Shown here piece after piece: positions 5,733-61,899 of a stretch of 64,000 nucleotides of DNA. Source of the DNA: Haplodiscus bocki (taxonomy: Eukaryota). The translations under genes were made by a program, and so were the position numbers. Position 1 is the stretch's first letter. Each line of letters starts with the position of its first letter. The stretch lies in NCBI GenBank assembly GCA_965655095.1, contig OZ296648.1, forward strand, positions 143,592,001 through 143,656,000, in the 5' to 3' direction. Under the pieces are notes generated by a model that saw nothing but the letters and a program-made list of their open reading frames with translations, was not told the DNA's origin and did not search any database.

Positions 5733-6241
5733 GGTCGCAAAGGTGATGTTAACCGCAAAAGAATAAATTTTTCGGATTTTTAACTCGGAGGTAGCTATTT
5801 CGCCGACTCTATAACACAAGAAATGACAGTTTGCTTGCCAAATGATTCGTTTCTCAACCGAGGTTTCCTATAAGAGTCCTCTTTATGAGTTTTTCTAACA
5901 ATTTGTTAATGAGCAGAAATAGAAGGTAGGAGAGCAAAGATTACGAAGAAGTGTCAGTTACAAGCCCTTTCTCGCTTACTATGAACCAACAAAAAACCAG
6001 GATACAGAATCAGTTTCTGAAAATCTATTGTAAGCAACTGATTTTTTTGCTCTCCGTTATTGTAGATAGCAGTAGTCTACATAGTGGATATGGTCTGCAA
6101 AAGTGCAAATTTTCTGGAAATTTCGTGAATTTAGCAATGTTTGGAGTACTTTGTAGCATAAAAAACACCATTTGAACAACTGAAAAATGTCAATAAAATC
6201 AGGTTTCGAAAACTTCCGGTAAAAGTTGGCAGATTGATGCA
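5733..6241 (+). repeat. 509-bp direct repeat, copy 2 (truncated by Polinton insertion)
   Basis: Matches 2547-3055; identity stops exactly at the AGTAGT Polinton terminus at 6242. Confidence 0.95.
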
Positions 6242-12100: not shown

Positions 12101-13061
12101 CAAAAAAAAATGCAACTTACTATTACAATTTGTTCAAAATGTAATGCAACATTTGCTCGAAACAAAGAAACAAGATCTGAACACATGTGCACATTATGTA
12201 CCAGAAACAACTTCTCTATTTTTACGGAAAAGACGTGAAGCGAGAAACGGATTGATTGAATATCTTTGCTGACTATATCAAACAACGTTAGTGTTCTCGT
12301 TCAACCCGGGTTTACTACCATACAAAAAACGGGGAAATCATAGAAAGTCATATATGGTGATCTCTGAAAACATTAAAGCCATAGAAAGTACCATTAAGTT
12401 TATGGTAACATGCAAGCCATAAAAAGACCATACTGTAGTATGATTCCATGCAAGTCAAACACTGTACCATAGTATGGCCATAGTACGGAAAAGCATGCGC
12501 GAATTTCATCAGATTATGATAAAGTTTTCTGGTGAACAAAAATTTGACTTAAAATACTCATGGAAAACATTACATTAAAGGGTGAAGTTCGAAACTTTTG
12601 GCAATTATATGACTCAGGAGCATAGTAAATGCCATCTGCGTTCATTTCTGGTTGCATAAAATTAAAAATGAGCTTCTGTGAAATCCCATTTCCGACAAGT
12701 ATAGTGTACAGTGATGTAGTTTTACAAACTACGACACAAGTAAAAGTCTTTCTTTCTTAGCACAAACGCGGAAAGTTGAACTCTGAAAGTTGCTGACGGG
12801 CATTCTTTTTGGGTCTTGAAGTTGTCAAGACCTTTGAATTACTCGGAACTATGTAATTAAAAATTTGGAAGTTGTTTGTCGAAAAATAAATCAAGAAAAA
12901 CATGAAAATCATTAGATGACCATACAAAATAACAGTAAAGACATTAACTGGCCATATAGGTTTATGACTGACAGACATTTTATAGTATGACCATAGAAAA
13001 AACAGGAAACTAATGGCATTACCATAAGCTGTTTTTGTGTATGGCAGTTTATGGTCCATAG

Positions 13062-15459
13062 TGTTGCAGAGGTAGGGGGATGCTGTGCTACTACGAGCAT
13101 GTGGAAAGTAGAACTAGAACTTGAATTTAATTTTCTTTCTGGTTCTGATTTTCTCTACCGCTTAGTGCGGCAGGTGATTAGCGTTCCTTTTGTTGTCTGA
13201 AAGAGTACAGCGGTGGCGCCGCGGCAGTTGTTCTGTCTAATGAAAATAAGTCTCAGGGGTTTCATTGATCTACTTTCAGCTGCCTTGCTGGCTCCGCGAA
13301 CAAATATTGCGTAAGTTCAATAAAAAGGGCTGTTTGAGCGATGAAAGGAAAATAGAGAAAGAAATAAAAAACAGTTCAGTAAACCGGGGGAAATTAAACA
13401 TACGAGATTGAAGAGAAAAGGAAACGGTGCAATTTGGGAACTGAGTCATGTCTAGTTGAGAGCAATGGAAGTGGGAACTACTAGAAAAAGAAGTTGTCTG
13501 TTCCATTAACTTCACAAAGAACGGTTGAAGAAAACTCTTTAGCTTTCACAAAATAGAAAAAAGATTGATTCTCGTACGAAATTTCTGTCCCCTTCTGTAT
13601 CTAGTCCCAAACTTTAGCTCTCCATGAACCCGAAAGATAACCAAAGTGAAATTCAATCCATATTCAATAAGTCTGGAGATTATCCGGTTTTTAAAATATC
13701 CTGCAGGAAAGAAGATCGTTGATGACTTGATCTTATGGTTTTCATGATATTAAATCTTCAAAATGTGTGAAATTCGATCAAAATGCAGATAGTGGAAAAA
13801 TCCCAAAAACGAACGGTAATTTATGTTATTGAGTTGGACTAAAAAACCGGAAGACAATTTACTTGTCAGAAAAACTCCCAAAAATTTTTGTTTGGGATAA
13901 CTCAAGATAATGTTGAATAATATGGTTGACTTTATTTTTTGTTTTGGTCTAGGAAGGACTTTTTTTCTCCAGTTTTTCTAGCACTTTTTTTCTGACTTGG
14001 GTTTAGTTTTTGCTGGTTTCATTTTTTAGTTGTTAATTTATGTCATATGTAAAACACTATCTTTTAGTCTACACTCAGTACTTGCGTTAGCATAGCAACT
14101 GGTTCAGGGAGCTTGGTTTTCCCCGAATTTTCCAAACCGTTAGTAAATCTCCGGATTTTTTGACGGGGTTTGATATGTTTTAAATTTTGTCTAATACTCA
14201 GGTGAAACTCGCTTTCCAGCGGCGACCTGGTGATGTTCTCTTAGTCTGTTTTTCTCCACCCAAGAATGTTGTCTAGCAGATTTTTTGAAAGGGAATTCTA
14301 TAACATTAGAATTGGTCAGAGAGATATTATATTCTCTTTCTGAACAGGAAAACTTTTTAACTAACGGATACCGTCGATGGAGTCGGATGATCTGCGTGTT
14401 GTTCTGGGACTCTCCTCTCATGACTCTGACTCGCGAAGAGAGTGAATAAGAACTTTCAAATCAATGCGAGCAATGGAATTGTTTGAAAGTTACAGAAGGG
14501 GACGGTTTCCGCGTATTTATTCCGTATCTCGGACTTCAGAATAATTTCTAAAAACCATGGAAGCAGACGAGGTGAGATTTGATCTATGTAACGCTAATTC
14601 TTTTTTCCTAGGAACACCATGGAGGTTGTGCAGTTTATGATCCACTCATGCTTCAGGACCGGAGGTCGTTAGCGGCATCCGCACACGCTAATACCAAAGG
14701 TAGCGTTAGCGGAGACTGTGTAGACTCCAGCGGCAAGAGTATAGAATAAAACAAGTTGTGCAAAGTAAGGTTCACACTTGTTACAGAACCGAAGTTCATC
14801 CACGGAATCAGCGCACGGTAAAACCAAAGCTAGCGTTAGTGGACTCTGTTTAGACTGCAGCGGCAAGAGTTTGAAATGGGTAAGCAGAAAAGAGCGATAT
14901 TTTCTAAGTCAGAAAAAAAATGGGACTCAGAATATTTTTGCGAAGTTGGAATGATTTTGTGGCTATTACAGAATTTGGAATTGTCTTAGAAAATATTTTC
15001 AGGATTGCAGTTGGATTTAGACTTTTTTTGTCCAAAAAACAAAAAAGGAGAAAGGGAGTTCGACTTGAAATATTTTGTCCAAGTAAAAAGGGAGAAGGAG
15101 AGTAAAGTAAAGCAAGTCAGAATAGGAGTGTGGAGCCCCGTCCGTTAAACGGGAAAACGAATTTTGATCGGGTCGCTTTCCCAGATCGACTCCAAAGTAA
15201 CAGCGTGCTGCCGTTTCATGCAACCAATACAAAAATAGCTTGTACCAAAAATGGTCGGCAGCAGGAGCCATTAGACAAATAGCTCCCGTCAGAATGTTTT
15301 GTAATAAATTATTTGTGCAACTGCAACGGTTAATTTATTGCAGCTATTTTATTCTTTCTCTTATCCGCCTTGCAAGATTGTCTCCTTAGAAAAGGTTAGC
15401 TTTAATTATTTAGTCATATTTAAATTACTTAACATTTAATCGTTATGTGTAAAACGATA
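13062..15459 (-). repeat. 3' LTR (2398 bp)
   Basis: Collinear with 29325-31723; about 13 differences in the first ~165 bp by eye (~90% identity). Plus-strand ends TGTTGC...ACGATA. Confidence 0.95.
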
Positions 15460-15471
15460 TCTCACCCCGCT
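15460..15471 (-). promoter_or_regulatory. Polypurine tract (PPT)
   Basis: Minus strand reads AGCGGGGTGAGA immediately before the 3' LTR. Confidence 0.7.
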
Positions 15472-15500
15472 GAAAGGGAAGTGAATTTGATTGAGGGGCT

Positions 15501-16784
15501 CTATGGAAAAAGGAAGAGGAGGGAAGTTTGGTTGTGAGGTTTTAGCAGAGGAGGGTCGAAAAATTTGATCTCTATAAAATTCGCACCATCAATTAGAAAA
15601 CATTGAGTTTCGCTAAAGAGTTTGTAGTGAGGAAGGAAGTTATTGATGAGGATTGTTGCATCTCCTGTTTTTGTTGAGATTGTGGGATTCTTGAAGACCA
15701 GATCTTGATCAGGCTAAACTGTTTTGGTCCATGTGTTCAGTGGGTCCAGTTGATCACGGACACCAACGCTGATGATCTTCGAGAAGGGCCGTTGAAACAG
15801 ATTGTCGTAGTCAGCAGGGAAGAGGGTGGCTAGGATTGATGTACACCTGCCAGTTGCTGGTCCAATACCGTAAGGGTAGAACTTGATGGAAAATTTTTGT
15901 CCATGGGGATAAGTCCTGAAAAAAGGACTAGTAAAACTCGTGGTCGGTTCAAAAAGGGGATCAGATGATGGTCGGGCCACTTTTGTAGAGTCGAATAAGA
16001 ACTTCACTGAGGGCATCTTCCAAATGATAACATCTGAATTGCCGGGTTCGAGTTGGCGACTTTTATCATACGAGAAAAAGTTTTGAGAATGAATCCCCGC
16101 AGTAATAGACGTATAAGCTGCTATTTCATCCGTAAATAAATTTTCGAGTTTGGAAATTCTTGAAGTGAGGTTCTGTACCGTTGTTGGAGGAGCTTCCTGC
16201 ATGTTGAATGTGGGCTGGAAATCGTCGTTTGCAGAATTGTTTGTTTTCCCCGCGGGTGTTCCCACAGCGCCCACCGGTGTAGAACGACGAAATTTCGGGG
16301 CGTCAGCACAAAGTAGTTGGAGTGCAGTTGAAGTAGGGTTGAGGTTAGGGTTAGGGTTAATTAGAGGACTGGTAGCGGAGTTGTTAGCTGCAATATACTT
16401 GTTGGAGGTTGTTCCAATCGAGGAGAAGAGCAAATGGCGCAAAAAGGCACAGTCAATCCGCAGTTGAAGGACAATGAGTTGTGGTGTTTGTCGGTCGAGT
16501 TTTTCTCCCTTCAAGTGTTGGTTGAACTGTTGGATGCTCTTGTGAATAACCTGTAGACAGTTCGCTTGATGTTGGAGAGGTGAAGAAAAAGGAGATAAAG
16601 ATCCAGGAAGTAATGGATGAGCTGCTGCATCCTGCTTAGAGTGACTTGTCGGCAGAATAAGAGGGAGGATGAAAATGCCGTCAGCGATGGGTTGGTTAAA
16701 AGGAGGACCATGAGATGGGATGAATGGCCGAGGCATTCCGGGAAGAAATCGAGTCAAGGGACACTCCTTGTAGTAGAGTTGCAC
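15501..16784 (-). pseudogene. Retroelement cargo: coiled-coil + TRAF-type MATH domain protein (premature stop at 15714)
   Basis: Reads VIIWKM...FTSPFFRTYPHGQKFSIKFYPYGIG..GRCTSILATLFPADYDNLFQRPFSKIISVGVRDQ. In frame past the TAG it continues PDQDLVFKNP...NNFLPHYKLF...FLIDGANFIEIKF to a stop at 15501, matching the TRAF-C consensus. Heptad TVQNLTSRISKLENLF precedes it. Fragments at 16818-17361 are probably its frameshifted N-terminus. Confidence 0.85.
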
Positions 16785-17549
16785 AGCGAAATAGGTGGGC
16801 CCGAGGGAGGATGATAATCATGGAGGAAAACGGATGCAAGAGGGTTGAGCGACATCAGCGGGAAAATGCGGCGATCGCCTGTGGAGGGACCAACAACCGT
16901 TGAGAGGGTAGATATGTGCTTTGAACCGTGTTTTCTTGGCATCGGCTATCCCAAAAGAATATTTCCCAGGTATAGAATTCTGGTTTGAGACTGTATTGTA
17001 AATGTTGATTGAAGCGGGTTTGTTTTGTTCTCCCTGTGTTTTTAGTATACTTTTCACGGCGATGTTGACGTCCAATAGTAGGGTGATCAGGCTGAACCTT
17101 GAGGTGACTGGGGTGTGAAAGAACGGGTCGAACGTCCCATAGGAGTGAACTAATTGGAGGAAATCCTTCTGTTGCTTTAGATTGATCGTTTTCAAGCAGC
17201 AACACTGAGAACTGTAATCCGGTTGAAGGAGAAGAAGCGGCGTCTGAGATTACGTTTGTGGGATTGTTAGTATAATGTGAAGTTGAGGCGGACGACCCGT
17301 TGGGCGAAGCTGAATGAGAGGGTATTTTTGCAGGAGAGGAGGTAGGAGAGAGAAAGGTCACGATAGGGTTAGAGGGAAGGTCGGAACTAGAAGGCGTAAA
17401 CGATTGGAAATCTTGTTCTGGGTCGAGAAAGACTGACAGACAATCGTCACTAGGAGGAAAAGTTCAGTGAGATGCGGCCTAAGGAAAAGAAATAAAACAA
17501 AGTTAAACAGGAGAAAGTGGAGTTACGGATCGGTTAAATTGAGCCGGCA

Positions 17550-19738
17550 TCATGACTGGATAAACATGTTCTTCCTTCTTCTTAGTATCCTCTCACATAT
17601 AGTGTTACTCTTCCTGATTACATAGAGTTTTTCTCTTTTCTTCTACCGCAGCGAGTGCAGGCGTGCGTGGATCAAAATTAAAGTCAAAACTGACCCAAGA
17701 AATATGTTTTATGAGGTGCTTAGAAGGGTCTTACTGAAATCGAGTGATGCGCCAGTCATTTTCGTTTTTTCTAAGTGGCGTATTACCATAACCACAGCAT
17801 CTGTTAGAAATTTTAAAAAAACACGGAGATTTTGATTCCGCAGTGTTCAAGAGCGTAGACGACTGGTCCAAATGTATCCATAAACTTATCTTTAAAGCAG
17901 CCAGGTGAGATAATATTGTCGACATAGGAATCTCATTAGGGAGCATAATAAGGATAATTGTCCGAGTTCTTGTTATTGTTCGAAAAGACAATGAGTTTTT
18001 CCGAGAACTCCTTCTGATCATTTTGGGAGGCAGCACTGCTCAGGATTTTGTCCCAAAAACTACTGATTTCCTTTCTAGTGTACATTGCAGCATCTTGAGA
18101 TCCAGGGAAAAATTGAACTGCCACTGCTGAAACTTCTTTGGGCCCAAACACAGCGGGTCTGTCCTGGTGTGCAAGGCCAGGTGTTAGTGTATACCAAGAA
18201 TCTTCTTGGTCCATGTCGAATTGAAAGAGGTTTTTGATTCGGTCTCTACAATTTTGTAAGTTAGCGGCGGGGTGTTTTTGTTGTGTAATGGGGTCAGCAA
18301 AAAGAATCTGGCCATCGTAGAGTATCGGGATCCGATCGAAGCACTGGTTCATAGTGTGAAGTGTTGAATGAACTAGTGGGCAGTGATACAGGCCAGCTAA
18401 ACTGCAATCAGTTTCCAGAATTTTTTACCAATTTCCAGCGATTATATACCCTGCGAGGCGTGGGTTTTCAAGAGATAGCATCAGAACAGTAAGAATTTGT
18501 GTTCGTTCTTGCTCATATTGGTTTTTAAAGAGTTTTATCTCAGAAGCTTGAAGTAATTGTGAGCTCTGGAAGAAGAGGTAGTCCAATTTTGTTCCCATGT
18601 GCATTTCGTAATCCATATTCAGATACATGTCTTCATCGCTTGTTTTGTGGGACGTGTGTTTCGGATCGTAGGCATAGAGTTGCGCAAATCCGTTTTTCTC
18701 ATTGGTGCTATGTACTGTAAGATTTGAGTTGCACCTTTCCGTTCCTTGACAAGATTCCTTGCAGATCTCAAGTCAAAGTTTCCGTTGATGATTGCTACAA
18801 AGAAAGAATCGTAATAAGTTGGGTAACTATCTGTCGGCTTTCTACATTGTTTTTGAGGATTGTTTTCGTTTTCAAATACAAAATTGGTTGTCGAGACAGG
18901 TCTACTAATGATATTTTCTTTTGTTCTTTGTTTCACCATGTTAACGTCTTCGGTTTGGAGGATTGATAACACACAGTTGTCATGGTAGTCCCATATGTAG
19001 GCGTAAGGATCCAGTGAAATTGTCAGGCAACTTAATTCTTCCAGTGCGCATGGCAAAACTTGAAGAGAGTCGGAAAAAATTTTCCCAGTTGACGACATTC
19101 TGACTTTTAGTTTTGTTTGTTGCATATGAGCCAGGATGGTATCACGGGTAACCCAACCACCTGCGATGCAGCGACTTCTGTTATTACCGCTCGTAGAACC
19201 CTCTGCGATTACAAAAGTATTCATTGTGTCACACTCAACTTCCACAAATCGAACAGCCAGAGACATCATACTTCCTGTTGCAAGAGATCGGCCTTGTTCT
19301 GGTGAGATTACTAAGTCACTAGTAATTCCAGCTATAGTATGATCGGTGCTGCTGTGGCCGTTATGTCCACAGTGTTACTCTACTCACTGGTGCTGAATTC
19401 GACATTTTGTTGCGTTAAGTTCTTTCCGGAATTGCTTAGTGTAGAGGATATATTTCGTTTGACTATTTTCCAATTCCTCCGGTGTAATGTGGCTTTGTCG
19501 TGCCTGGTTGAGAGCTTAGAGAGTGCTTTCTGTCGAGGCACCACAATCGAAGTGAGACACTCTAAAATTCTTGGCAACATGGTCTGCATCTGGAACTAAA
19601 GTGCAAACAACCTCGGAACAAAAACGAGGATTTGAAGAAGAATTAGCGTCCTCGCTGAACATTCCAGCGGAAGTTCCGTCTGTGGTATTTTACTTCAGAG
19701 GGTAAAACTAATAAAAACAATGAAAGTAGCGTCTTCAC
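17550..19738 (-). pseudogene. env-like envelope glycoprotein resembling gB-like/chuvirus-type class III fusogens; multiple stops and frameshifts
   Basis: Signal-like VKTLLSLFLLVLPSEV at 19738, then SHFDCG, LNATKCRI..HCGH, LPCALEELSC..DPYAYIWDYHDNC, GTKLDYLF..EQERTQIL..LSLENPRLAGY and LYHCPLVH..NQCFDRIPILY..FADPIT..QNC. Hydrophobic stretch near 17800. 3' end approximate. Confidence 0.75.
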
Positions 19739-20307
19739 GGAGTGTCTCAGTGGAAGTTCATTCCATGGTTTTTGGGGAATAGCTATTGAAAAAGACCGTA
19801 ATATCAAACTGGCGCTTTGTAGGCGCTAACACAAAGTGGGACTTAACATTTTATGGTAGTAGCTCCACTACTATTAAAACGATGTCGAGATTTTCAAAAA
19901 GAGTGCCGGATTAAAACAGGTATCACCGAAAAAAGTGCCATATTAAATTTTAAAAATAACTCACCTGGACCATTGAATTGGTTTAATTGTAGTTTTTTTG
20001 TTTCGTTGTGGGCTTGTGGTTTGGTCCTCAGAGACTGAAAATTGACACCGACGAATGAATTCTTTAACTAAGTGTCTGGTCAGAGGATGAGTGTTTCTGA
20101 AGTGCGAAAATTTCGTAGGTTCTTGTTGGGCTAAAAGGAGACTTGTTAGCTCTTCAGTTTTGCTTTAAAGTGAAATTTCCAGTTTCCAGGTTGCAGTTGC
20201 CTCACATTGTGGGCTGGTATAACAATTGGGCAGATACTTCGCTCCACTCAATCTTTGTGATCTCCACGTGATTACTTGTAGCAGGGGGCTGCCTGCGGAA
20301 CTTGATG

Positions 20308-21359
20308 TTAAAATCGAATGTCATATAGATCAACAAGAGGGTGCAGGTTTTGGATCTGTGACACCTCATTAAATCTCCCAAAGCTTTTGTCCATAAAATC
20401 CAACAAATCGTCCAAGCTTTGGTTTTCCCTTTTATCCAGTGTCCTGGAAATTTTTAGAGCCACAAAAAGACTGGCGAATTCTTCTGTTTGGACTGTTGTG
20501 GGAATTCTCAACAACCCGCAATCTGACTTGTAATGGATTTTTGTCCCCTATCCAGAAGATTTTAGTTATAAAGTGTTCTTGCAGAGAAAAGGCTGTCCAA
20601 TTGCAGCGAATGTCAGCTCTCAGATGCGTCCTGTTGTCACCAGGTCGTCTTAAATTAGTTTCTATTGGGTGCACTGAGTGAAGTGTCATTCCTTCAAAGT
20701 GTTTTTTACATGCTTACGATCTTCGTTGGAGGAGGGTTCTCGAAGAGACTTTCAAAAATTGCAAAGTTTGCAGTTTCTGGACGATAAGAAAAAGTAGCTT
20801 TTCCCCAAGTTTCAAGTTTTTTCGTGTCGATTTGGTGACTTCGAAATGTAATGTTATAGGTCAAGCTTTTGTTAATGTAGATTTTGTCGTTTATATCGGG
20901 AAAAGTAGTGGTCATGTAACACTTTCCGTCTTGGCTCTTGATCAAAACTGGAGGTGGATTTTTAAAAAGAGCTGCATTGAAAGAATAGTGGGATATTCCG
21001 GGAGTACAATTGTAGGCGAGTATTTGTTCATCATGGGTAGACTCCGTAATTACTCTGATTTCTTTGGTAAAATTGTTAAAAATGTTGCTCACGATTATGT
21101 GGAATTGTTTGTCAATATTGAGAAGGGTATGTGTCATTTAGATACGGTAGTCTTTGTTTCCTTAACCGATGTTGCTAGGCATGTAGATTTCTGAATAGAG
21201 GAGTTGGCGTAAATGATAACGCTTAGGCGATCCAGAAGGGCAAATGTACACCTCTTTTGTCTCTTTTTCAGTTTCAATATGGAGTATGACAGTCTTGGAA
21301 ACGGTTGTCAGTTCAATTCGTATGATTGCTTTTAATTTTCCCTCCTTTTTGAAATACAT
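20308..21359 (-). pseudogene. Unknown accessory ORF of the retroelement (stops/frameshifts)
   Basis: ORFs 21162-21359 and 20706-21137 are in the same frame and continue by frameshift into 20432-20689 and 20308-20514. Internal repeat ALFKNPPPVLIKS / SLFENPPPTKIVS. Confidence 0.55.
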
Positions 21360-21769
21360 CGAGTCATAGCAAAACTGACAACGAAGCCATCAGTTTTTTC
21401 ATTGCTCTTCGAGTAAGTAGAATTTTGAAATTATTAATAATAAACTAAGGTTTTCCCTAAAATTTTCATTGGTTAAAAAAGTTTTCACAAAATTAAAAAA
21501 AAACATTGATCAAGTCAGCGTTTTTTGTTTCTTCCATTCTACTGTATTTTTTGTTCTGCTACGTTTATCGTAGTAGGGCCTTCCAGGGTAGAATTAGGTG
21601 TCTCGTGGGTTGGGTAGGAGTCGGATTGAGTAAGGCGAAAAGAACAAGAAATTGCAAAGTTCCAGCAGGATATTTATGAGAAATTCAAGGAATCATTGAA
21701 AAGATTAGGCGTCGGGATAGGAACCAGGGGTCGTAGTTTCATTATCAAAAACTTTCTTGTTGTTGAAGG

Positions 21770-22471
21770 ATGGATCACTACGAAAAGTATTTCGAAGAGG
21801 AAGAAGAAGTTAAAATTGAAAATGAGGAGGTAGTGGTTAGCGTAGTAGCGCCACAACCAGTGAATATGCCACCAGGGGTTGTAGTGGGTCCGGTTGCCGG
21901 GTCACCGGAGTCGCCTTTGCCCTCCCCGTCGCCTCCATCGCCGTCTCTCCAAGAACCTTCTCCGCCCCAAAGTTCCCCGTTAGGGGATGCGCCGTTATTC
22001 ATGGGTTCTTTTAAAATTGATGACATCGTAGATCTCGATCAATGGGCGATGGATGCGAGGGCCACCAAAGAAGACCCAAATGTCCGCAGTGAGGAGCCTG
22101 AGATGTCACCCAACCTGAAGACATTCATGCGATATACGCTGGGGACACAATGGGAATTGAAACTGATTCGAGAGTCGGGAGAAAGAGTTATCTGCCAACT
22201 AAGAGCTTACTTAGAGGGTTACAACTCGTTGACTAGCTTCAACTGCCGCAGTGGCTCCGGCTGTTTTGTGCCTGGACGGCAACTGAAAGGCGAGAGCAGC
22301 TGGAGCTGCTCGCCGAGGCTGGTGGTTTTCTTGAGTTGTGAGGCTTTCGGGCCTTCCTCTGGGTCGTCGGCCGTTCTCGGCCGACGGCCTTTTTCTATGT
22401 CTTGTGCCCGCCGTTGTGGTAAAAATCTCGGAGTTGCACGGAATAAAAAAGGGAGGTATCAAAATGTTTAG
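21770..22471 (+). CDS. Antisense ORF inside the retroelement; acidic and Pro/Ser-rich protein of 233 aa
   Basis: ATG-initiated 702-bp open frame opposite to gag-pol, with an EEEEEE N-terminus and a PSPSPPSP tract. Coding-like sequence with stops continues to ~22900. Confidence 0.5.
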   Translation: MDHYEKYFEEEEEVKIENEEVVVSVVAPQPVNMPPGVVVGPVAGSPESPLPSPSPPSPSLQEPSPPQSSPLGDAPLFMGSFKIDDIVDLDQWAMDARATKEDPNVRSEEPEMSPNLKTFMRYTLGTQWELKLIRESGERVICQLRAYLEGYNSLTSFNCRSGSGCFVPGRQLKGESSWSCSPRLVVFLSCEAFGPSSGSSAVLGRRPFSMSCARRCGKNLGVARNKKGRYQNV

Positions 22472-22980
22472 GAGAAATTATTGGAATCATCAGAAAAAAA
22501 TGCGGAAACTGATGAGTCAATAGAACGAACTGATTCATGATCAGACTTTTCAAAAGCAATATTATCGAAGATGTGTGAAGGAATTCTGGTCGAAAGATAG
22601 AAGAGCAATTCTTCGAGCAAGGGCTCAGAACATGAAAGAGAGTGTCGTCAAAGAAGTTCGTATAAACTAGCCGTAGCTTTAGAACCGAAATGAACTTGAA
22701 GATTACTTTTGTTAACGTGAAGTTTGAGATAGATAGGGGTTTAGAAGAGACGCAGACACGGACAATATGAGTAGCATAATTCCAATATACTTTAGTGAGA
22801 AGTGCTGAAACGTAGTTCAGACCGTGCCAATCAGGAAGGACCTGCCCAATGCAACTCGGGTAAATCTTATGGCATTTAGGCATTGTTATCTGGAAAAGAA
22901 AAATCATAAAAACCCCGTAGAAAAAATGCAAGCAAGCCAAACTAAACATACAAAAAAGGGTATAACTCAGTAACAAAAAG

Positions 22981-24650
22981 TTAGAATTTGTAGTGCTGGC
23001 GAGTGCGAGTGCGGCGCACTGAGTGTGGATAAAGATGATTGGGCTGTGAACGATTGTAATTAGGTTCCTTGGCTTTGGGTTCACGGCTATTATTTTTGAA
23101 TTGTTGAAATGGAGTTAATGGTCCACTAGGAGGATTCGTTCGTGAAATTGATGGTATTCGATGGAGCTGCGATATATCAGGAGTTATTGGCAGTTCCGGC
23201 GATAAGACATGAGGAGAATTGACTCCAGGGTCATTGCTAGTATTAATGACTCGTTTCTGAGGAATTGTAATAGGGGTTGTCCGAAAGGGTTCAATAGGAA
23301 ATGGGAAAGAATTTCCCATGCCTGATTTTTTGGTATTGTTCAACTTCTGGATTCGCTGCTGCACGAATCTTCCGTGAAAATCGTCATGACGTCGATCCAT
23401 AGGCATATATTTTTCGTTAATCGGGGGTGGGGTTTCTTCCTCAGGTTAGTATTCGACTAGATGAGTTTGGTGCACCGTTTTGAGAATTTTAGGATCCCTG
23501 TCATGTTGAATTTGGTATTTGGTGTTAGTTACTCGTTTTGTTACCGTAAAAGGTCCGATTTACCTCTGTCGAAGTTTCTGGCTTGTAGAGAGATCTTGGC
23601 GATGACTTTCGTAAAGAACTTTTTGGCGGATGTCGAGGTGTTGTCTCAATTTCAAACGGTTTCTGTAGCCATGCGATCTATACGTTTTTTCTTGATATCT
23701 TCCAAAAGTGGCAGAATAGATGCTTTTGAAATCGCGTTCTCGTTCCAAGAGTGTGTGTAAAATTTGCGGTCGAAGAAGATTATCTAATAACTGATTCTTT
23801 AGATTGTTCTCACTGTGTGAGAGAATTGGTAGGTCTTCGCAGAATTCAGAACTGCAAACTTTCTGAATAATGCGATAGAGTCCAAATTTCAGAGAAATAG
23901 GAATCTGAGGTTTTGTCCCGGAAACAATTTCATAAGTTGTGCTTCCAGTTGTGTAGTTGACACTTGTATTGTGGGCAAAAGCGAAATTCGTTTCTGAGGA
24001 AGACCAATTGTTTCCAGCGTCGTTCGAAAGGTTCCGCCAAAAACCAGCAAAATGTTGACTCTGTCTTCCATTTTTTCCGTTAGTCTATGACTAATGAGCA
24101 GTTTTGTGTCGTAAAGTACTTACTAACACTTTTGTCCAGTTTACGAAATCGGTGTTGCTGGAGGCAGTGCCTCAATCGTGCACAATAGATTGAAGAATTC
24201 CGAATGAATGGACCCTTTTCTCGACAGCCGAAATTGTAGCTTGAGCACCAGTGTTAGTAACTGGGTATACCATCAGCAAGCGAGAAAATGCATCAATAAC
24301 CAAAAGACAACGAAGGTTGCGATTACTTGAGGGGTGGATAGGTCCTTTGTGATCAATATGGATTGTTCGGAACGGAACAGTTCTTTTTGCCGTTCTTCCA
24401 ATGGAACTTCATCCGGTGCTTGGGTTCAGGCTTGATATTCTGGCAGGTGAAGCAGTCAGCAGTATGTGCACATATCCAATGAAACATACCAGACCAGTAG
24501 TAGAAATGTTTTGCTTTGTTGTAGGTTTTTGAAGCGCCCATCTGTTCGCATACTTTGTTGTAATGTCCAAATTCGAAACATGCTAGGAATAGTGACAGAG
24601 GTAAGCAAATTCGTAGGATTTCATCGTCTAATTTATCAGTAGGTTCGTTG
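22981..24650 (-). pseudogene. Integrase (HHCC zinc domain, DDE core, long C-terminal region), fragmented
   Basis: GH..MGASKTYNKAKHFYYWSGMFHWICAHTADCFTCQ, then IHIDHKGP and LLVIDAFSR; downstream fragments 23889-24071, 23560-23748 and 22981-23406. Confidence 0.85.
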
Positions 24651-24678
24651 TAGTATAAAAGTTGTCCTTCTTTTTCGA

Positions 24679-25611
24679 TTAGGATTCGGTCGAAATCTTG
24701 GCAATGTCGAAAAGAGATTTTGAACTGTTGAATTTCGGTTGACTTTGTTTCGGGTGAAGTTCGTTTACGTAGCCAGCATCGACCAGTACAAAGAACAGGT
24801 TCTTTGATTTGTTTGGACAGGATCGTGGAGACATCAAGATCACTGTTTTAGCAACATCATCTAATTTAGGATTTAAGGACTTGGTATCCAAATGAGGTGC
24901 CTCAGTGGTTGTTAGCGACTTCTTTGCTAGGGAAGTGTCAATTTTTCCCATGACAGCGTTATGAGCTGCTTTGGTTATGCACACACGATAGTTGTCGGCA
25001 TTTAGGTTTATTTCCCATACTAGGTTGTGTTCGTCGTCGTTTATGATCGCGTCAGCATCATCAGAGGGTTTATCCAGGACGTCATTGCCTTCGTTAACAC
25101 TCAGCGAGTTGATTGAACTGTATGTTGGTTCAGAGTCTTCTACGGAGCTCCAAGATAGCGTTGAAGGTAGGCAGTGGCATCTGAATTGGTCGATTTTTCG
25201 GCCCATTCTGAAACAATCGGTTGCGGGTTGAATCGTTGTTGTGGGAAACTTGTTATTGAGACTGTTCAATGTGATGTTTTCACCATGATTGTCCAATCGG
25301 AGGACCTTATTGTCATTCCCTTGTTGGCAATGGATTGGGTAGAAGTCGTTGCAAGTGTCGTTAGGAATATCATCGGGTTGAATTCTATAGGTTACTGGAG
25401 AGCCATGTTCATCATAGATTTCTATATCCCTAGGTTTCTTTTGTGTTGTAATTGATGTTTCTGGTATCCCTCTACTCCTACGTTTTGACTTAGGATATCC
25501 GCGAAAGCAAGATATAATCCTGGAGTCTAGATACTCTTGAGACTCTGTAATTTCGTCATGATCACTTGGTACCTGAAGAACCGATGGGTTAATCGTCCTT
25601 TGGGTCCCCAT
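24679..25611 (-). CDS. 310-aa non-canonical pol segment between RNase H and integrase
   Basis: Open frame lying between the RNase H end (YLFCGHKPIL, ~25630) and the integrase zinc finger; Asp/Asn/Ser-rich with no recognised motif. Confidence 0.55.
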   Translation of the reverse strand: MGTQRTINPSVLQVPSDHDEITESQEYLDSRIISCFRGYPKSKRRSRGIPETSITTQKKPRDIEIYDEHGSPVTYRIQPDDIPNDTCNDFYPIHCQQGNDNKVLRLDNHGENITLNSLNNKFPTTTIQPATDCFRMGRKIDQFRCHCLPSTLSWSSVEDSEPTYSSINSLSVNEGNDVLDKPSDDADAIINDDEHNLVWEINLNADNYRVCITKAAHNAVMGKIDTSLAKKSLTTTEAPHLDTKSLNPKLDDVAKTVILMSPRSCPNKSKNLFFVLVDAGYVNELHPKQSQPKFNSSKSLFDIAKISTES

Positions 25612-26800
25612 CAGTCAAGAATCGGTTTGTGACCACAAAACAGGTATTTAAAAAGGAGATTCAATGATGTAATGTTCATAGGTTTGTAAAACTGAAACTA
25701 TTCCACATAGTTCTCTATGGAGAGTAGACACCTTCTGTTCAGATTTGTCGAAAACTCTTGAGTTGAAGGGAATTATCCGTTTCCCTCAGCAAACGGTTCA
25801 ATCAAAAGACAGTTAGTTTTGACATTTGATGAATCCACATGAAAATGCAAAAAATAATCAGTTGAGGGTACAGCAAAGATCGTGTCTTCGTTTTTTCTGT
25901 CTTTGATTGATTGAAACAGTTCTTCGTCTTCGTGTCTCCAGTGAAAAGGAGTCAAGTCCTTAATCAAGTCAAAAACGGTTGACTATCTCCATGGAGATTC
26001 TTGAAATAAGAACTGTAGAATCCAAGGCATCTAAGAACTTTCATAACATCTCCTTTACTTTCAGGTGATATGAGGTTCTTCAATTCATTCTGGGCAATTA
26101 ACGTGACCAAAAAATTTAATTTTCTTTAGAAAATAGAATGTTTTGTCAGCAGCTGCCTTGAGACCGGCCTTCCTAAGAAGGGTATGGTACTCTTTAATGA
26201 CCGTGATCATCTCCTTTTTGTTTTGTGACTGCTTCATTGTATCATCAATGTACGTGATTGCTTGCTTTTTCTTGATGAGTGGATCGAACTGAATCGTCAT
26301 GAGTCAACTAAAGAAGTTTGGAAGTCCCCACAATCCAAAGAATCCACGCGTGTAAGTGTACTGCTTTCCACCGAGTATGAAACTAGTTTATTTTTGTACT
26401 TCTGGGCTCAATAGAACTTGATGATGGGCACAAGAGAGAACCCTTACTGAGAAAAATTTCCCGTTGACCCTAGTCATTATCATTTGCATTGGTTCTAAGG
26501 GGCGGGATTATTTTGTGAGATCTGTCACTGAGTTGAGATATCTAGCGTCAATTACTAACTTCACATAGTCGTTTTAGGCATTCGGATGATAGGGTTATCA
26601 GACAACGATCCCATCTTGTTGTTATCATCCATTTCACAAATGTTATCTGCGTCCTCTAGTTGTGTGAGTAGTTTTTCCAATTTCTCCTGCCAATGTAACG
26701 GAACTTTCCTAGGTCGTTGTCAATTCAGTTCAACATTTTTTTCAGTGTGACATGGAACCTTTGACGAATTTCACCCGCATTGCACATATGTTGAGAACAA
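25612..26800 (-). pseudogene. Reverse transcriptase + RNase H, fragmented
   Basis: KLVIDARYLN (~26550), GKQYTYTRGFFGLWGLPNFF (~26350), QAITYIDD, GLKAAADK..FLKKIKFFGH; RNase H FHVDSSN and NSRVF. Confidence 0.9.
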
Positions 26801-26999
26801 GCATCCTGCGCATCAACGAACATGTCAATCAGGATTATCATTTCTTCATCAGTGATGTCTGAATACTGGAAGTCGAATTGTTTTACATAGTTGATCAGTT
26901 CCTTTGGTTGGTACTGAAGATAGTGATCAATGGGTCGGTTGTTGTGATCTTTCTCGCGGAGAACCGGGAATTGTTTGTCACAAGTCGTTTGACAGGATT

Positions 27000-28360
27000 T
27001 TGAATCTTTAGTGAAGTCTGTTTCTAACTCGTGGTTTGCTAAGATGAATTCTTCTGTATCGTTCTATCTCATCGTCAGCGTAGAAAAACACCGTCGCCTT
27101 AGCGGACAGCGCGTGAACTCCATTTTCCACCAGAGTGTCGACTACAATTTGTACGTCAGCGTAAACCAAAGTATCACGGAGTAGTTTCACAATTTCATGA
27201 TTGTTCATTTGGTCCAGTCCACAACCAAGTTTGGGTGTGGCAATAGTAGAGACATGATTCGTACTTGCGTGAATCTTCTTGGCTTCTAATTTTTTAGACG
27301 GCGTAGATAGGTTGGGTTTATCGCAAAAATATTCTTTAGTCACTAGGTTGTAGATATAACGCTTTCCGATTGAATCCCAGGAGGGGAAGACTTGTCCTAT
27401 TAAAAGTTTTGCTTTGCGGCATGTTGATCTGAGATTAAAATTTCTGTGGGATTAGAAGTCGGCAAAACCTTTGCTCATTCGAGCATCAGCAAAGATGCAA
27501 TGTCTGGTTGAATTAGGTTGTTGGAGGATCGAATCTTTTGTACCATAGATGATCTGTAAAAGTTCGTCACTGCTCTGGGCTGGAACTGTTGAGAAAAGGA
27601 GAGAGCAATCATTGTATCGTTCATCAGTAGAGCTTTTAACGTTCGTTAGCTTGTAGGGACTCTGTTTTTAGTATTTAGGTTGATCTCCATCAACCACGTC
27701 GAGAGAAGAGATTTCAATTAGCTTTTTAGGTAGTATTATTTGATTATTTTTGTTGTTTTCCACCGGTATCGGAAGGCTACGTTCGGATCGATTGCATAAA
27801 GTTTTTACAAAGCCAGACCACTAGCCACAGCGTTTCGAATCGGTTGAAATTTGGAGCCTGGCGGGAAATGTATATTAGTATCTGTGGGCGAATTTTTCCA
27901 GCGAAGGTCGCTTTCAGCATCAATACACATTTTACAAGGGGTCCTAACAGTCACAATTTGTGATAAATGAAGATAGGATTTCTTTTGGTGAAACCAGCCA
28001 TAGCAGATTGAATTCGGTGTATTCTTTATCTCAGTTTCATATAGACCAAAATGAATTCCAGAGACTTGTTTTTGGCAGAAATCCGTTCCAATGAAGTTCT
28101 GAGTCTTCATTTTAGTGATCCATACTGTTGGTGGAAAGATAAAGTGTCCATGTGGGTCATAATTAAAAGCTATATTTGCGTAACCGATCAAAGGAACTGT
28201 TTGTCCTGAGTACGTCTTCGTTACTTTGGTACTTTTTTGTAGAGTAATTGTCTGCTGTGCCTAACAAATCTCCCAAAAATTTCGATACTTGATGATTGAG
28301 CGAGTTGCTCCTGTATCCAACAGGAGTTCAATCTCTAAACCACAACCTTTTTGGGTGTCT
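27000..28360 (-). pseudogene. Aspartic protease plus long PR-RT spacer
   Basis: ELLLDTGATRSII at ~28290-28330 and NFIGTDF motif in ORF 27805-28191. Confidence 0.85.
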
Positions 28361-28608
28361 CCGGTGGCGAAGTAGAAGATATTTAGGCTAAGTCTACAAT
28401 TTCGAGTTTTGTTGACGTTCCAGTTCGGAGACCTTAGTAGTTTAACGGACAGAGATCTGATAATTCGTTAATAGTGTCATCGGTTGTGATGAAGAGAACC
28501 AAATTAGGTGACGTCTGGTTATTGTTTTGTGGAAGTTTTTGTGCGTGGGGCGTAAAACCCGTCGTGGGTCGGTTTTAAGATCTGCGGAAGACAGAGTTGT
28601 TAGGTTTA

Positions 28609-29300
28609 TTACTTCATGGTAGGCGGTAAGAAATGTTTTGTCAGAATTCTCTCCTTGAAGTCGATGGAGAACGAGAAAGTTTCCGTTGTTTCGCCATGTC
28701 CCATTTTGAATAGTGAAAGATCAATTTCGGGACCAATTTTCATCGCTTCAATTGGAAAACTGATTTGGGCGCTGATCATATGATCTTCCATTGTTCGGAT
28801 GGTTATTCTCATATGCGAAGTTTGGCCTTGGAGAGCAATTCTGGTAAGATGTGGAAAAATTTCTTGTAGGTCCATCTCTATTGTACTTCTGGTTCCATCT
28901 TTGGAAACGTTGGCCTCTGGTCCATTGTTCTGATCCATGATCTGGTCCCCATTTTTTGATGTATTCCTGAGTAAAAGTGACTTCTTTCTCGGGAGTTTTC
29001 AACGAGCTTCAATTCTTCCTCTCGAATCTTCATGCGGCACCAACTTGGGGTATGTCCGTTCGTGCGGCAGTAGTTGCAAAATCGTGTTGCATTCCGTCTT
29101 GTCTTTTGGTTTGGGTCTACTGTTCGAGGATTTCCCTTAACAGCATTAACTCGGTGTTCCTGTAATTCTGATAGTAGGTTTTTCATTTTCTGTCCCATTG
29201 TAGCCATTTGAGGTTTTGTTTGTTCTTCATCGTTTTTATGAAAATTAAGACTTAGAAAGACACGTCTCTCTGAAGTATTCGGGTTGAGAATTCATTCCAC
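28609..29300 (-). pseudogene. gag, C-terminal part with CCHC zinc knuckle
   Basis: FCNYCRTNGHTPSWC (CX2CX4HX4C) in ORF 28878-29207, followed by an N/R/Q-rich tail in a frameshifted ORF. Confidence 0.85.
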
Positions 29301-29303
29301 GTA

Positions 29304-29321
29304 GCATCATTGGTCGAACCA
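29304..29321 (-). promoter_or_regulatory. Primer-binding site-like sequence
   Basis: TGGTTCGACC.. begins 3 nt after the CA end of the 5' LTR on the minus strand; the cognate tRNA was not identified. Confidence 0.65.
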
Positions 29322-29324
29322 TTT

Positions 29325-31723
29325 TGTCGCAGAGGTAAGGGGATGCCGTGCTAATACGAGCATGTGGAAAGTAGAACTAGAACTTGAATTCAATTTTCTT
29401 TCTGGTTCTGATTTTTTCTATCGCTTAGTGCGACAGGCGATTAGCGTTCCTTTTGTTGTCTGAATCAATACAACGGTGGCGCCGCGGCAGTTGTTCTGTC
29501 TAATGAAAATAAGTCCCAGGGATTTTTGTTGATATACTTTGAGCTGCCTTGCTGGCTCTGCGAACAAGTTTTCCGTAAGTTCAATGGAAAGGGCTTCATG
29601 AGCGATGAAAGGAGAATAGAAAATGAAATAATAAATTATTCAGTCAACCGGGGGAAATCAAACATTTGCGATTGAAATGAAAAAGAAACGGCGCAAGTTG
29701 TGAACTGAGTCATGCCTAGCTGAGAGTAATGGACGTGAAAACTACGAAAAAACCATTGTCTTTTCAATTAACTTCACAAAAAAACGGTTGAAAAAAGTTG
29801 TCTAGCTTTTACAAAATAGAAGGAAGAAAATAATTCCCGTACAAAATTTCTGTCCCCCTCTGTTTATAGTCCCGAACTTTAGCTCTCCATTGACTCGAAA
29901 GATAATAAAAGTAAAATTCAATCCATTTTCATTATTTCCGGTGTTTGTCCGATTTATAAAACATCCTGCACGAAAGAAGATCGTTGATGACTTGATCTCA
30001 TGATTTTCATAACATAAAATCTCCAAAATAAATGAAATTCATTCAACATGCAGCTAATACAAAAGTATCAAAAACCAATGGTAATTTATCTTATTAAGTT
30101 GAACTAAACAACCGGAAGAAAATTTACTTGTACAAAAAACTCCCGAAAATGTTTGTTTGGGATAACTCGAGACAAAGTTGAAAAATATGGGTGACTTTAG
30201 TTTTTGTTTTGGAACTAGGACGTCGACTTTTTTCTCCAACTTTTCTAGCACTGTTTTCATGATTGGGTTTAGTTTTTGCTGGTTTCATTTTTTAGTTGTT
30301 AATTTATATCATATGTAAAATTCTATCTTTTAGTCTACACTCAGTACTTCCATTAGCATAGCAACCGGTTCAGGTAGTTTCGTTTTCCCCGAATCTTCCA
30401 AACCGTTAATAAATCTCCGGATTTATTGGCGGGGTTTGATGTGTTTTAAAATTTGTCTAACACTCAGGTAAAAGCTCGCTTTCTAGCGGCGACCTGGTGA
30501 TGTTCTCTTAGTCTGTTCTTCTCCACCCAAGATTGTTGTCTAGCGGATTTTTTGAAAGGGATTTCTAAAACATTAGAATTGGTCAGAGAGATATTCTCTT
30601 TCTGAACAGCAAAACTTTTCAACTAACGGATGCCGTCGATGGAGTCGGATGATCTGCGTGTTGTTCTGGGATTCTCCTCTCATGACTCTGACTCGCGAAG
30701 AGTTTGAATAAGAAATTTCAAAACAATGCGAGCGATGGAATTGTTTGAAAGTTACAGAAAGGGACGGTTTCCGAGTATTCAATCCGTATCTCGAACTTTA
30801 GAATAAATTCCAAAAACCATGGAAGCAGATGAGGTGAGATTTGATCTATGTAACGCCATCTCTCTTTTCCTAGCAACACCGTGGAGGTTGCGCAGTTTAA
30901 GATCCACTCATGCTTCAGGACCGGAGCTCGTCAGCGGCATCCGCACACGCTAATTCCGAAGGTAGCGTTAGCGGACACTGTGTCGACTCCAGCGGCAAGA
31001 TTAAAGAGTAAAAAAAGTTGTGCAAAGTAAGATTCACACTTGTTACAGAACCGAAGTTCATCCACGGAATCAGCACACGGTAAAACCGAAGCTAGCGTTA
31101 GTGGACTCTGTTTACACTCCAGCGGCAAGAGTTTGAAATGGATAAGCAGAAAAGCGGGATATTTTTCAAGTCAGAAAGAAAATGGGACTCAGAATATTTT
31201 TGCGAAGTCGGAATGATTTTGTGGCTATTACAGAAATTGGAATTGTCTTAGAAAATTTTTTGCAGGATTGCAGTTGGACTTAGACTTTTTTTGTCCAAAA
31301 AACCAAAAAGGAGAAAGGGAGTTGGGCTTGAAATATTTTGTCCAAGTAAAAAGGGAGAAGGAGAGTAAAGTAAAGCAAGTCAGAAGAGGAGTGTGGAGTC
31401 CCGTCCGTTAAACGGGAAACCCAAATAATGATCGGGTCCCTTTCCCAGATCGACTCCAAAGTAACAGCATGCTGCCGTTTCATGCAACCAATACAAAAAT
31501 AGCTTGTACCAAACATGGTCGGCAGCAGGAGCCAATAGACAAATAGCTCCCGTCAGAATGTTTTGTAAAATATTATTTGTGCAACTCCAACAGTTAATTT
31601 ATTGCAGCTATTTTATTCTTTTTCTTATCCGCCTCGCAAAATTGTCTCCTTAGAATAGGTTAGCTTTAATTAATTAGTCATATTTAAATTAATTAACGTT
31701 TAAGCGTTATGTGTAACGCGATA
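29325..31723 (-). repeat. 5' LTR (2399 bp)
   Basis: Direct repeat of 13062-15459; plus-strand ends TGTCGC...GCGATA, followed by TSD ATAG. Confidence 0.95.
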
Positions 31724-34261
31724 ATAGTATGATTTGCATGTCAGGTCAACCCGGGAAGTCAAAATCGAATGCACTTATCCTAGCTTATCAAATAAAACAT
31801 TCAAACCAATACACCAATAATGTTCAAATAAAATCGGAAACGTGTAGGATTGGATAAAATTTTAACCAGGTGATTAACCAACTGTATGGTGTGACAGATT
31901 TGGCAAAACTCAGGATAAAAATGGATTCACATTAAAAAAGCCACTGTTGTCGAAATTCACGTACATGTGGCAAGTGATATGCCAGCAGTGCTGTGAGCCC
32001 AAAACACCGTTCAAGGTTGAATTTTGTTTGCCAATGAAAACTTTCAGAATAACAATGAGATATATCTAAACAATTTCGACACTTTATTGCGGCAGATCAC
32101 CGAAAAAATTTACCGAGAGATCAGAACTCCGCAATTCGGTAGTTTTAGGGAGGACAAAGCGTATGTTTTACTCACTATTGCCAGTTCAATCCTCTGCTCC
32201 TTTCTCTTTGGGCATAAAACACAAATGTTCCGTTATATACTCGTTATTGGGGTCTCTCCATCCATGGTTCCTTACAATAGAATCTCCGAGTATCGCACAA
32301 TATCTATCTTTTGAAGTTTTTGGGTATTTCTAAAATTTCCAGTGTTTTCAAAAGTCCAAATCCTTCAGAGTTGTCAGTAATCGAAAGTCTTTCACATTTG
32401 AAAACAAAGCCTCAAAAAATCTAAAGCGAAACATAATTCCAACACATCTGTTTTTCTGGCGAAAACCACAGAAAAAAAATAGGACCAACCGAAGCATTGA
32501 TCAATTGACCATCTTGAAACCAGTTTTTTTCTTCCACTGAGCCATTGAGTTGCAACTGGTCAAGGTTTAACGATTTTTTGTAGCAAGTGCCGAAAACAAA
32601 GAGGACTGCTGAAATGAAAGTTAGCAAATGCAAATGGCTTCCAATTTCATAAAAATTCACAATGCCTTCAAGAGCGAGAAATAATTGGTGTGAGTGAATC
32701 TTTTTTTCGGGTCGCATAATAAACGAATGAGAAGCCTTTGCACATGATTGCATAATACGAAAATTCAAAACTCATCGCAGCTCAGTTTTTTTCAACCCTA
32801 AGGTCAGAGTATGCTGTGCTGGGTCGAAATGTGAAGTAACAGAGTCACGGGACCTATTGAGCAAAGTACCCCTTTCAAGATGTAACCAATCTCTGCCAAC
32901 GGCCCTCAGAAATTTTTTGGCTTTCCCTGTCATAATTGCGGGAAATTTCTGGAGCGGTTGCTAATTGCACCCGAATATATGATTTGAGAAAAAACGCTTC
33001 CAGTTTCGTCGAAGTCCCTAGAGTTTGACTTTCTGTCCTGCTAAACTCCTGAGCCAGCCTATAAGTTACTCTTCCATTGATGTGTAAAAAGAACGGCGTT
33101 GTATAATCCTCCTTTACCCTATGAACATTTGTCTCCCGTGACAAGTTGTTCTTAGGATGCTCTTCTTAGCTGTCCCTGTTCACTGCCGCAAACTTCCTCT
33201 TTTTTCTCATTGTTGCCAATTGAGGGAGACATCAATTGGACTGTTTGCAACACTGAAGCGGCATTTAATGTTTATTCTTGTATATTTCAACATGGGTGAA
33301 TGGAGCAACCGGTAAATAATTGTCGGTGAAGTTCATTTTTTTTTCAAAATTGGTAAAAAAAATCAGTACCAATTCATAAAATACTCGTAGTTCTACTTCA
33401 CCTACGTATACCATTTCCTTTTTCCGAAACATGATTGTTTGTGAGCGAGGTAAAGGTACAGAAAGGGGGAAAGTTATTTGCTTAAAAACTTTTCTAAACA
33501 AAAAAATCCAACTGTGGCGAGCATAAAGCAAATTCCCATCCAATTCTTCCCTCATGGGCTGCGTTTCTTACACCATTTGAGAAAAAATGGAAAAATCATG
33601 TCCATTGAAAATTGACAGGAAGATATTTTTTCTTGCTTCGACAAATGTTTCACTAGTAAATAGCAACTAACTGAAGTTATCTCATATTTGGGGAAACAAC
33701 AAAAAACCATTATAAAAATCAATCAACGTAATGAAAAAAATCAACCAAAAAGAAATACAGATGCTGGCTGACTATGAAATACAGAATATTTATGGTGGCT
33801 GACTATGAAAAACACTGAAAAAGGAAGAAAAAGGAAGGCTCCTTCTCTGTTACTCGTTTTTACTAGTTTTTATTGGGTCTGCTTCGGATTTTTTTCCTTT
33901 TCACTTGTAGTAACAAGTATAGTAGTGAGTATTGGCAGCGGGATGGAATAAATACGGATTCACTGCCAATTCAACTCTTTCAGCACAAAATATTGGCACA
34001 ACATGTTAGCACAACTTTTAGTAATTGGATCGATTGTGACGTTAACAGACGCAGAACGATAGAACACGTATGGAAAAAAACGTTCACTCCTGAAGCCTTT
34101 GAACTTGAACTACAGTCATTTGATCAGTGAACCGATTTTTGCAACATCCCAATAATTCAAATGTTCTTCACTTTTGAATACTGAAAACTTAGTTTTGTCA
34201 AACAAACTTACAGAAATTTGAAATGTGCGAAGATACTGAGAAGTATTTCCAGAACTTCAAA

Positions 34262-42118: not shown

Positions 42119-42176
42119 CTTAGTGAAATTTTGCATTTTCAAAAAATACATGCCAATATATATATGAAGCCCTTAC

Positions 42177-61871: not shown

Positions 61872-61899
61872 GGCAAACAGAGAGAATGGAAAAATGTAG

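Follow-up and report, generated by a model that had tools for sequence, protein, structure and literature searches.

The 64,000-nt stretch of the Haplodiscus bocki genome analysed here (OZ296648.1:143,592,001-143,656,000; hereafter the window, to whose positions all element coordinates refer) contains an 18.7-kb Ty3/gypsy element (13062-31723), a dead copy, inserted long ago, from a lineage of giant elements that has multiplied recently. In addition to gag and pol, members of this lineage carry an envelope gene (env) and a cassette of accessory open reading frames (ORFs) under selection, and we conclude that they probably work as complex endogenous viruses. The layout is family-wide, the ORFs are under purifying selection, an env-containing intron has been removed at exact splice sites in some genomic copies, and a TRAF-like gene in the cassette descends from an intron-bearing host subfamily.

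The window copy is bounded by two 2.4-kb long terminal repeats (LTRs), the 5' LTR at 29325-31723, which ends 5'-TA...CA-3', and the 3' LTR at 13062-15459, with 90.1% identity between them (2158/2394 columns; Kimura two-parameter distance 0.106). The element lies on the minus strand, as does every feature given below except the antisense ORF, and it is flanked on both sides by a 4-bp target duplication, ATAG (13058-13061 and 31724-31727), duplications of this length also being present at other copies; GC skew is positive along the element and flat outside it. A primer-binding site follows the 5' LTR (29304-29321; mutated in this copy, and in the family complementary to the 3' end of tRNA-Met(CAU)), and a short polypurine tract (15460-15471) adjoins the 3' LTR. 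These features bear out the first-pass annotation of this DNA, which had recognized LTRs, a target duplication, a primer site and a purine tract around a pol of gypsy order; by Pfam, the order is indeed protease, reverse transcriptase (RT), RNase H and integrase, and the best PDB match of the RT is Ty3.

Relative to other copies, about 1.3 kb is missing downstream of the primer site of the window element, comprising the leader, an upstream ORF (ORF0) and the first ~195 codons of gag, and from this loss we estimate full-length family-A copies at about 20 kb. What remains of gag (28437-29308, with a CCHC knuckle), together with pol (22984-28467), env (17506-19694) and the TRAF-like ORF (15504-16969), is interrupted by stops and frameshifts; Pfam profiles detected an integrase zinc finger (E 7e-08), a Monjiviricetes fusion glycoprotein (PF24664, E 2.1e-09) and a TRAF MATH domain (E 1.3e-06) in the window frames. 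From the end of pol to the 3' LTR the element spans 7,521 bp, matching the roughly 7.5 kb of extra genes first described, which were said to include an antisense ORF and, besides env, at least three accessory genes. Env and the extras are present, the antisense ORF is found at 21767-22471 on the plus strand, and the accessory count is eight: A (22471-22901, ~140 aa), the antisense ORF, B (21153-21389, ~73 aa), C1/C2 (20706-21137, a single 143-aa frame in this copy), D (20317-20674, ~127 aa), E (19997-20333, ~114 aa), X (16864-17478, ~206 aa) and the TRAF-like ORF. Nested insertions with terminal repeats of their own, an alternative raised at first pass, were not found in the 3' region, which is colinear with other copies; no terminal repeats bound the extra ORFs, and only imperfect inverted pairs of 14-25 nt were detected.

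Searches for further copies covered the 1.5-Gb genome, and the numbers of query matches are first-look candidates rather than copy numbers: about 3,000-3,600 for MATH queries overall (3,585 for one, of which 150 were scored, many with near-identical open frames of ~500 codons) and 4,570 for the integrase query. A firm floor is given by 621 exact genomic matches to the family-A splice-donor motif. Six loci chosen by MATH had one common layout, with paired LTRs in five. Because loci chosen in this way would select on TRAF, we took 14 of the top 16 non-self integrase matches, leaving out one locus already among the MATH matches and one on a short contig. All 14 belonged to family A, and in each of them A, the antisense ORF, B, C, D, E, env, X and TRAF were present in this order. 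Frames open over 90% of their length ranged from 7 of the 14 copies for env (the lowest) through 9 for TRAF to all 14 for D (the highest). Since LTR pairs were 98.9-99.9% identical in five of six measured elements, the sixth being the window copy, the lineage has moved recently.

Four families, A to D, have this cassette in common, with pol 58-84% identical and sizes of 16.9-22.0 kb. Family A combines gag and a macro-domain-containing pol with nine accessory ORFs and an env resembling class III fusogens. In family B (22.0 kb, LTRs of 3.3 kb, pol ~78% identical), A and E are absent and as many as three ORF0 paralogs occur; families D (pol 84% identical) and C (16.9 kb, pol 58% identical) each retain an antisense match, small ORFs, env, X and TRAF. 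LTRs start with TA in family A (window positions 31723 and 15459) and with TG in families B and C. All four families have one primer site in common, which can pair with the 3' terminus of a tRNA whose anticodon loop carries CAU. A pattern for tRNA-Met(CAU) with encoded CCA gave 12 exact matches against 2 in the control; ARAGORN detected no complete tRNA at three of the 12 sites, and the 5'-truncated tRNA-Met(CAU) copies at L111-L113 are probably retrocopies of the primer tRNA. Copies also occur in head-to-tail arrays with a period of ~17.5 kb (G000 C2:24.63-24.66 Mb and C9:15.02-15.04 Mb; L009-L011), in which neighbouring units apparently share one LTR. Three loci (L030, L101 and L102) are deletion derivatives in which the start of env is fused to the MATH domain, L101 and L102 lying in tandem units of ~7.8 kb.

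Every ORF tested is under purifying selection. From 31 copies we used those with an open frame covering at least 85% of the query (50% for env), and pairwise dN/dS (omega) within families was 0.04-0.06 for integrase, 0.07-0.08 for env, 0.09 for both ORF0 and the macro domain, and 0.09-0.42 for the accessory ORFs. Tree-based codon models, fitted to 13-19 family-A copies after leaving out the window copy, one decayed copy and one or two divergent alleles of C and the antisense ORF, gave omega values of 0.08 (A), 0.10 (antisense), 0.31 (B), 0.26 (C), 0.27 (D), 0.28 (E), 0.27 (X) and 0.34 (TRAF), with p<=7e-10 against omega = 1 for each of these eight. Within TRAF the MATH part was most constrained (0.07-0.21), and shared variants in the accessory ORFs showed a third-position excess. 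Other reading frames gave omega values of 0.79-6.8 in four of five cases; the mirror frame was low, as expected, but had stops in every copy. Among family-A copies with integrase 94-100% identical (for example L019, L057 and L054), the antisense protein varies from 31 to 100% identity, a spread that suggests module swapping or an arms race. Two conditions raised with the first-pass annotation, that family members share the extra ORFs and that dN/dS lies below 1, came out in its favour.

Env lies entirely within an intron (19964-17479) whose donor directly follows a mini-exon of three codons, including a start codon (19965-19973), and whose acceptor at 17479 marks the beginning of ORF X. ORF X is without a start codon of its own and starts at a pyrimidine tract and AG that families A, B and D all retain; it has an acidic N-terminus, a basic stretch and a conserved C-terminal domain. 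One fetched copy was without env precisely from the donor behind ORF E to the ORF X acceptor, and the resulting junction had 9 exact matches in the genome and 0 in the reversed control. All six junction copies examined had an open frame of 198-211 aa from the mini-exon start codon, and since they fall at four separate places among unspliced copies in a tree, the same cut arose repeatedly. These copies are best read as reverse-transcribed spliced RNA, a putative fossil of a tax-like spliced transcript. The 1.3-kb deletion of the window copy and those in L062 and L100-L102 are not at GT-AG sites. Contigs of four sequencing runs of unspecified kind, compared with one family copy, yielded no usable splice information. 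An acceptor-like sequence also abuts the start codon of the antisense ORF, in the window and immediately upstream in the ten copies shown.

The TRAF-like ORF, which overlaps the end of ORF X, encodes a coiled coil followed by a TRAF-C/MATH domain (PF21355, E 5.4e-17; TRAF4-like in PDB, E 4e-14). It is RING-less: an N-terminal RING or zinc fingers found no Pfam match at E<=1, and there is no Cys-rich N-terminus. The best genomic Pfam MATH matches are two host genes, L024 and L025, around which no gag, pol or env matches occur in 27 kb and which have a common intron inside MATH that the element TRAFs are without. All element TRAFs group with this pair against the host-like MATH genes L026 and L035 (support 100/100), and a helical motif is common to the pair and the TRAFs of families B and D. 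The tree grouping, the motif and the host intron indicate that TRAF descends, minus the intron, from this host TRAF-like subfamily; on these sequence comparisons, the element gene was captured from within this genome. Among 528 database homologs, the best 120 are ENA proteins without names.

The core genes place the lineage within Ty3/gypsy. In PDB comparisons the RT was closest to Ty3 (E 1.9e-34), followed by foamy virus (5.5e-22) and MLV-type enzymes (5.6e-14). In a quick RT tree, which kept 81 of 126 rows (37 near-duplicates were dropped and the remainder failed a length filter), the families fell in an unnamed clade of 44 rows with a stem of 1.11 and an SH-aLRT of 100, apart from five named rows. 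Gag of a family copy matches PF03732, and upstream of its stop all four families have a G/T-TTAAAC heptamer, which we take to be a slippery motif and which is a likely -1 frameshift site. Between protease and RT lies a macro domain (27131-27562; the window copy is 78% identical and has one stop) that, in a family copy, matches human OARD1 (TARG1) with an E of 9.4e-26, its TK and GCGLD motifs aligned. It belongs by sequence to the TARG1/OARD1 family, with what are presumably the catalytic Lys and Asp positions kept. A distant gypsy pol outside the 44-row clade (P0231) also has a TARG1-like macro domain, so macro capture has likely occurred more than once. The macro motifs are decayed in P0126, P0129 and P0130; the best match of the P0130 macro region was 39%, for a pol query that scored 34 family-A copies only. 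Env (~729 aa, 17 Cys) has signal-peptide-like and transmembrane-like hydrophobic segments at its two ends and matches PF24664 only (E 5.7e-39 and 2.3e-41), while a PDB sequence search with it gave no match. By its profile it is a class III (gB/chuvirus-type) fusogen-like protein and not the F-type env of insect errantiviruses.

The small accessory proteins appear to form two sets of paralogs, ORF0, A and E on one hand (hhalign E 1e-4 to 2e-3) and B, C1 and C2 on the other (7e-14 to 5e-4); D is related to ORF0 and E at best weakly (E 0.005-0.014). No credible match to Pfam or PDB profiles was obtained for X, the antisense protein, ORF0, A, B, C or E, and the ESM Atlas gave no usable one for ORF0 or X. 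Models of ORF0 (pLDDT 87) and of the helical C-terminal domain of the antisense protein, which follows an acidic, proline-rich N-terminus, (pLDDT 88) suggest two confidently folded domains. Foldseek against PDB and BFVD found no match for ORF0 at E<=0.001, and the antisense domain reached at most Z 4.1 with no BFVD match, a lack of matches that is no proof of new folds. A PH-like assignment of ORF0 (VIA Z 4.7 at best, rmsd 3.4, 85 aligned) was too weak to use. ORF0 has 416 relatives, of which the 120 listed are without names, and the antisense domain 153.

A replication cycle can be proposed from these features. Full-length RNA would be primed by tRNA-Met, pol would be made by -1 frameshifting at the heptamer before the gag stop, and env would likely let particles pass between cells. 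A spliced RNA skipping env would make ORF X, and probably also TRAF, and ORF X would likely regulate the LTR; the antisense ORF would be made from opposite-strand RNA. RING-less TRAFs can act as dominant negatives, and the element protein may be a decoy adaptor, binding receptor tails or host TRAFs but giving no ubiquitin-ligase output, while the macro domain would remove ADP-ribose marks, so that the captured genes would together likely blunt host signalling. The TRAF effect could also have the opposite sign, as an iridovirus TRAF-like protein, ISKNV ORF111L, acts on TNF-receptor signalling and is described as promoting caspase-8 apoptosis (PMC3352826); a viral TRAF need therefore not be an inhibitor.

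Several observations weigh against complex endogenous viruses as the explanation. Env was open in just 7 of the 14 integrase-chosen copies, and the cassette is not fixed, family B being without A and E and the set of family C shorter. The copies used for dN/dS were picked for open frames, and the subfamilies recombine, as the range of antisense alleles (31-100% identical) illustrates. Donor and acceptor have three bases in common at the junction, which leaves a recurrent template-switch deletion as a formal alternative to splicing; a genome-wide search for the predicted family-B junction gave 0 matches, no copy of the donor motif was detected in family C or D, and ORF X of family C has its own start codon. 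The likely role of ORF X as a regulator is argued from its composition and from analogy to HTLV tax and foamy-virus tas, which are regulators. The TRAF tree includes no other animals, and the family C TRAF could be a separate capture. Finally, infectivity, expression and the functions of the accessory proteins are what we infer from the genome.

If env and the accessory genes merely aid replication or survival in germ or stem cells, through trafficking, anti-apoptosis or anti-silencing, the element would be an intracellular retrotransposon with no extracellular infection. We regard this as unlikely, though it deserves serious attention: selection on env shows function and not infection, the elements are known here from genome sequence and not from particles, and a survey of env-bearing gypsy elements itself calls transmission inferred (PMC13524379). 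Yet the signal-peptide-like and transmembrane-like segments and the class III profile are kept where pol is just 58% identical, and env-less spliced copies are rare, with 9 junction matches against 621 intron-bearing ones. That the element is instead a vehicle by which thousands of TRAF-like copies tune host immunity, regeneration or symbiosis would fit the first-look MATH candidates and the TRAF frames open in 9 of 14 copies, but it is quite improbable, given that selection is seen between replicating subfamilies, that in the old window copy TRAF is disrupted just like gag, pol and env, and that we identified no LTR-free derivative fixed at an orthologous site. Extra ORFs captured by LTR elements have precedents (PMC5408684, PMC6431247), and the cassette might in principle be neutral cargo or nested insertions on a normal gag-pol-env element. 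The omega values and third-position excess reported above, an order conserved over four families and the lack of bounding terminal repeats leave this barely credible, and selection refutes neutrality for the eight tree-tested accessory ORFs as well as for ORF0 and the macro domain. We retain the complex endogenous virus as the favoured explanation. A more far-reaching version of it, which we put forward only tentatively and think doubtful as a whole, is a still-infectious Ty3/gypsy virus that reinvented deltaretrovirus-style regulation, carries an immune-evasion kit and supplies most host TRAF-like sequences. Its regulation would involve an antisense regulator and a transactivator made from RNA spliced past env, and the evasion kit would combine a de-ADP-ribosylase with a RING-less TRAF taken from the host and with two families of small proteins whose folds found no match.

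Elsewhere in the window, a second and far more decayed member of the lineage lies on the minus strand at ~47000-61900, with remnants of gag, pol, ORF A, the antisense ORF and env, 65-72% nucleotide identity to family D and a 1,214-bp tandem triplication of its gag start. Two open frames on the same strand (38597-39874, 425 aa, and 42139-42648, 169 aa) have no Pfam match, the shorter looking like a small secreted Cys-rich protein. An identical direct repeat of at least 300 bp occurs at 2547-2846 and 5733-6032 (spacing 3,186 bp).

With respect to known systems, the LTRs, target duplication, tRNA primer site, purine tract, pol order and Ty3-closest RT all place the lineage in Ty3/gypsy. A strict errantivirus is an insect element with a baculovirus-F or class I env, whereas env here matches PF24664 only. 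Of the earlier description as a complex, formerly infectious and errantivirus-like lineage, the complex, env-bearing Ty3/gypsy lineage holds, but env is not F-type, and "formerly" fits the window copy alone because the family includes LTR pairs that are 99.7-99.9% identical. In HTLV-1 (tax/rex, HBZ) and foamy viruses (tas), a start codon in a small pre-env exon is spliced to a 3' exon. The elements here are similar in that a start-codon exon appears to be spliced over env into overlapping 3' ORFs and an antisense gene is present; removal of env as part of the intron of a spliced, probably regulatory gene is recorded in family-A genomic copies, with 0 matches for the predicted family-B junction. 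Unlike complex retroviruses, they have a Ty3-like RT and a class III env, and as no sequence homology was shown, the likeness would be convergent. A Ty3/gypsy lineage can thus reach the gene complexity of complex retroviruses, with selected accessory genes and a splice event recorded in the genome.

Env-bearing gypsy elements, including those with gB-type env, are widespread according to the survey cited above (PMC13524379), and the families here fit its broad description of gag-pol-env order, a gB-type env with signal peptide and transmembrane segment, and multiple copies. They resemble its 'ancient errantiviruses' in these respects and in their Ty3/gypsy pol, but differ in having ~3.1 kb with five or six ORFs between pol and env. 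The first filter of the survey required a pol-env gap of at most 1 kb and a total of at most 10 kb, and since the gap here is ~3 kb it would pass over these families; env surveys with short-gap filters miss elements of this layout. The main text of PMC13524379 contains no occurrence of TRAF, MATH, accessory, macro, splic- or antisense, its seven supplements have no acoel rows, and we found no relevant acoel paper in the literature. Captured macro or other enzymatic ORFs are described in fish epsilon-like endogenous retroviruses (PMC4977317) and, as an extra ORF3, in bdelloid LTR elements (PMC5408684), but these have one or two extra ORFs, compared with a nine-gene cassette and a macro domain inside pol here; Troyka is described as lacking env (PMC12440569). 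ISKNV ORF111L is likewise a virus-encoded TRAF-like protein, but of a large DNA virus (PMC3352826).

The closest parallel is planarian Burro/GYPSM1, giant gypsy-like LTR elements that are described as numbering in the thousands, show homology to MATH_TRAF_C and to mononegavirus-like env, and are proposed to interfere with host apoptosis and ubiquitination (PMC6431247). The claim of an undescribed system was thus overstated in the first-pass annotation, as Burro already combines MATH/TRAF and env in giant, multicopy gypsy elements; a description of a layout like that reported here was not found in the open literature, to which our search extended (Repbase, Dfam and subscription journals lay outside it). 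Burro suggests that MATH/TRAF capture happened more than once, and in such genomes, what looks like a large 'TRAF family expansion' may consist of retroelement cargo; with the host donor of TRAF identifiable here, the benefit of TRAF signalling to a retroelement can be put to the test. Burro is described as exceeding 30 kb, with MATH, BIR, BCL2, ankyrin and env in one ~4,900-aa polyprotein, env between gag and protease, and a dUTPase between protease and RT (PMC6431247). By comparison with that description, the present families are set apart by a size of 17-22 kb (16.9-22.0 kb), separate gag, pol and env with env downstream of pol, no Burro-type Pfam domains in gag or pol, a macro domain in the dUTPase position, a separate TRAF ORF located 3' of env, for which the source is a host subfamily of this genome, an antisense gene and a spliced ORF. 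Judged by its genes and their arrangement, the lineage is therefore neither a strict errantivirus nor Burro.

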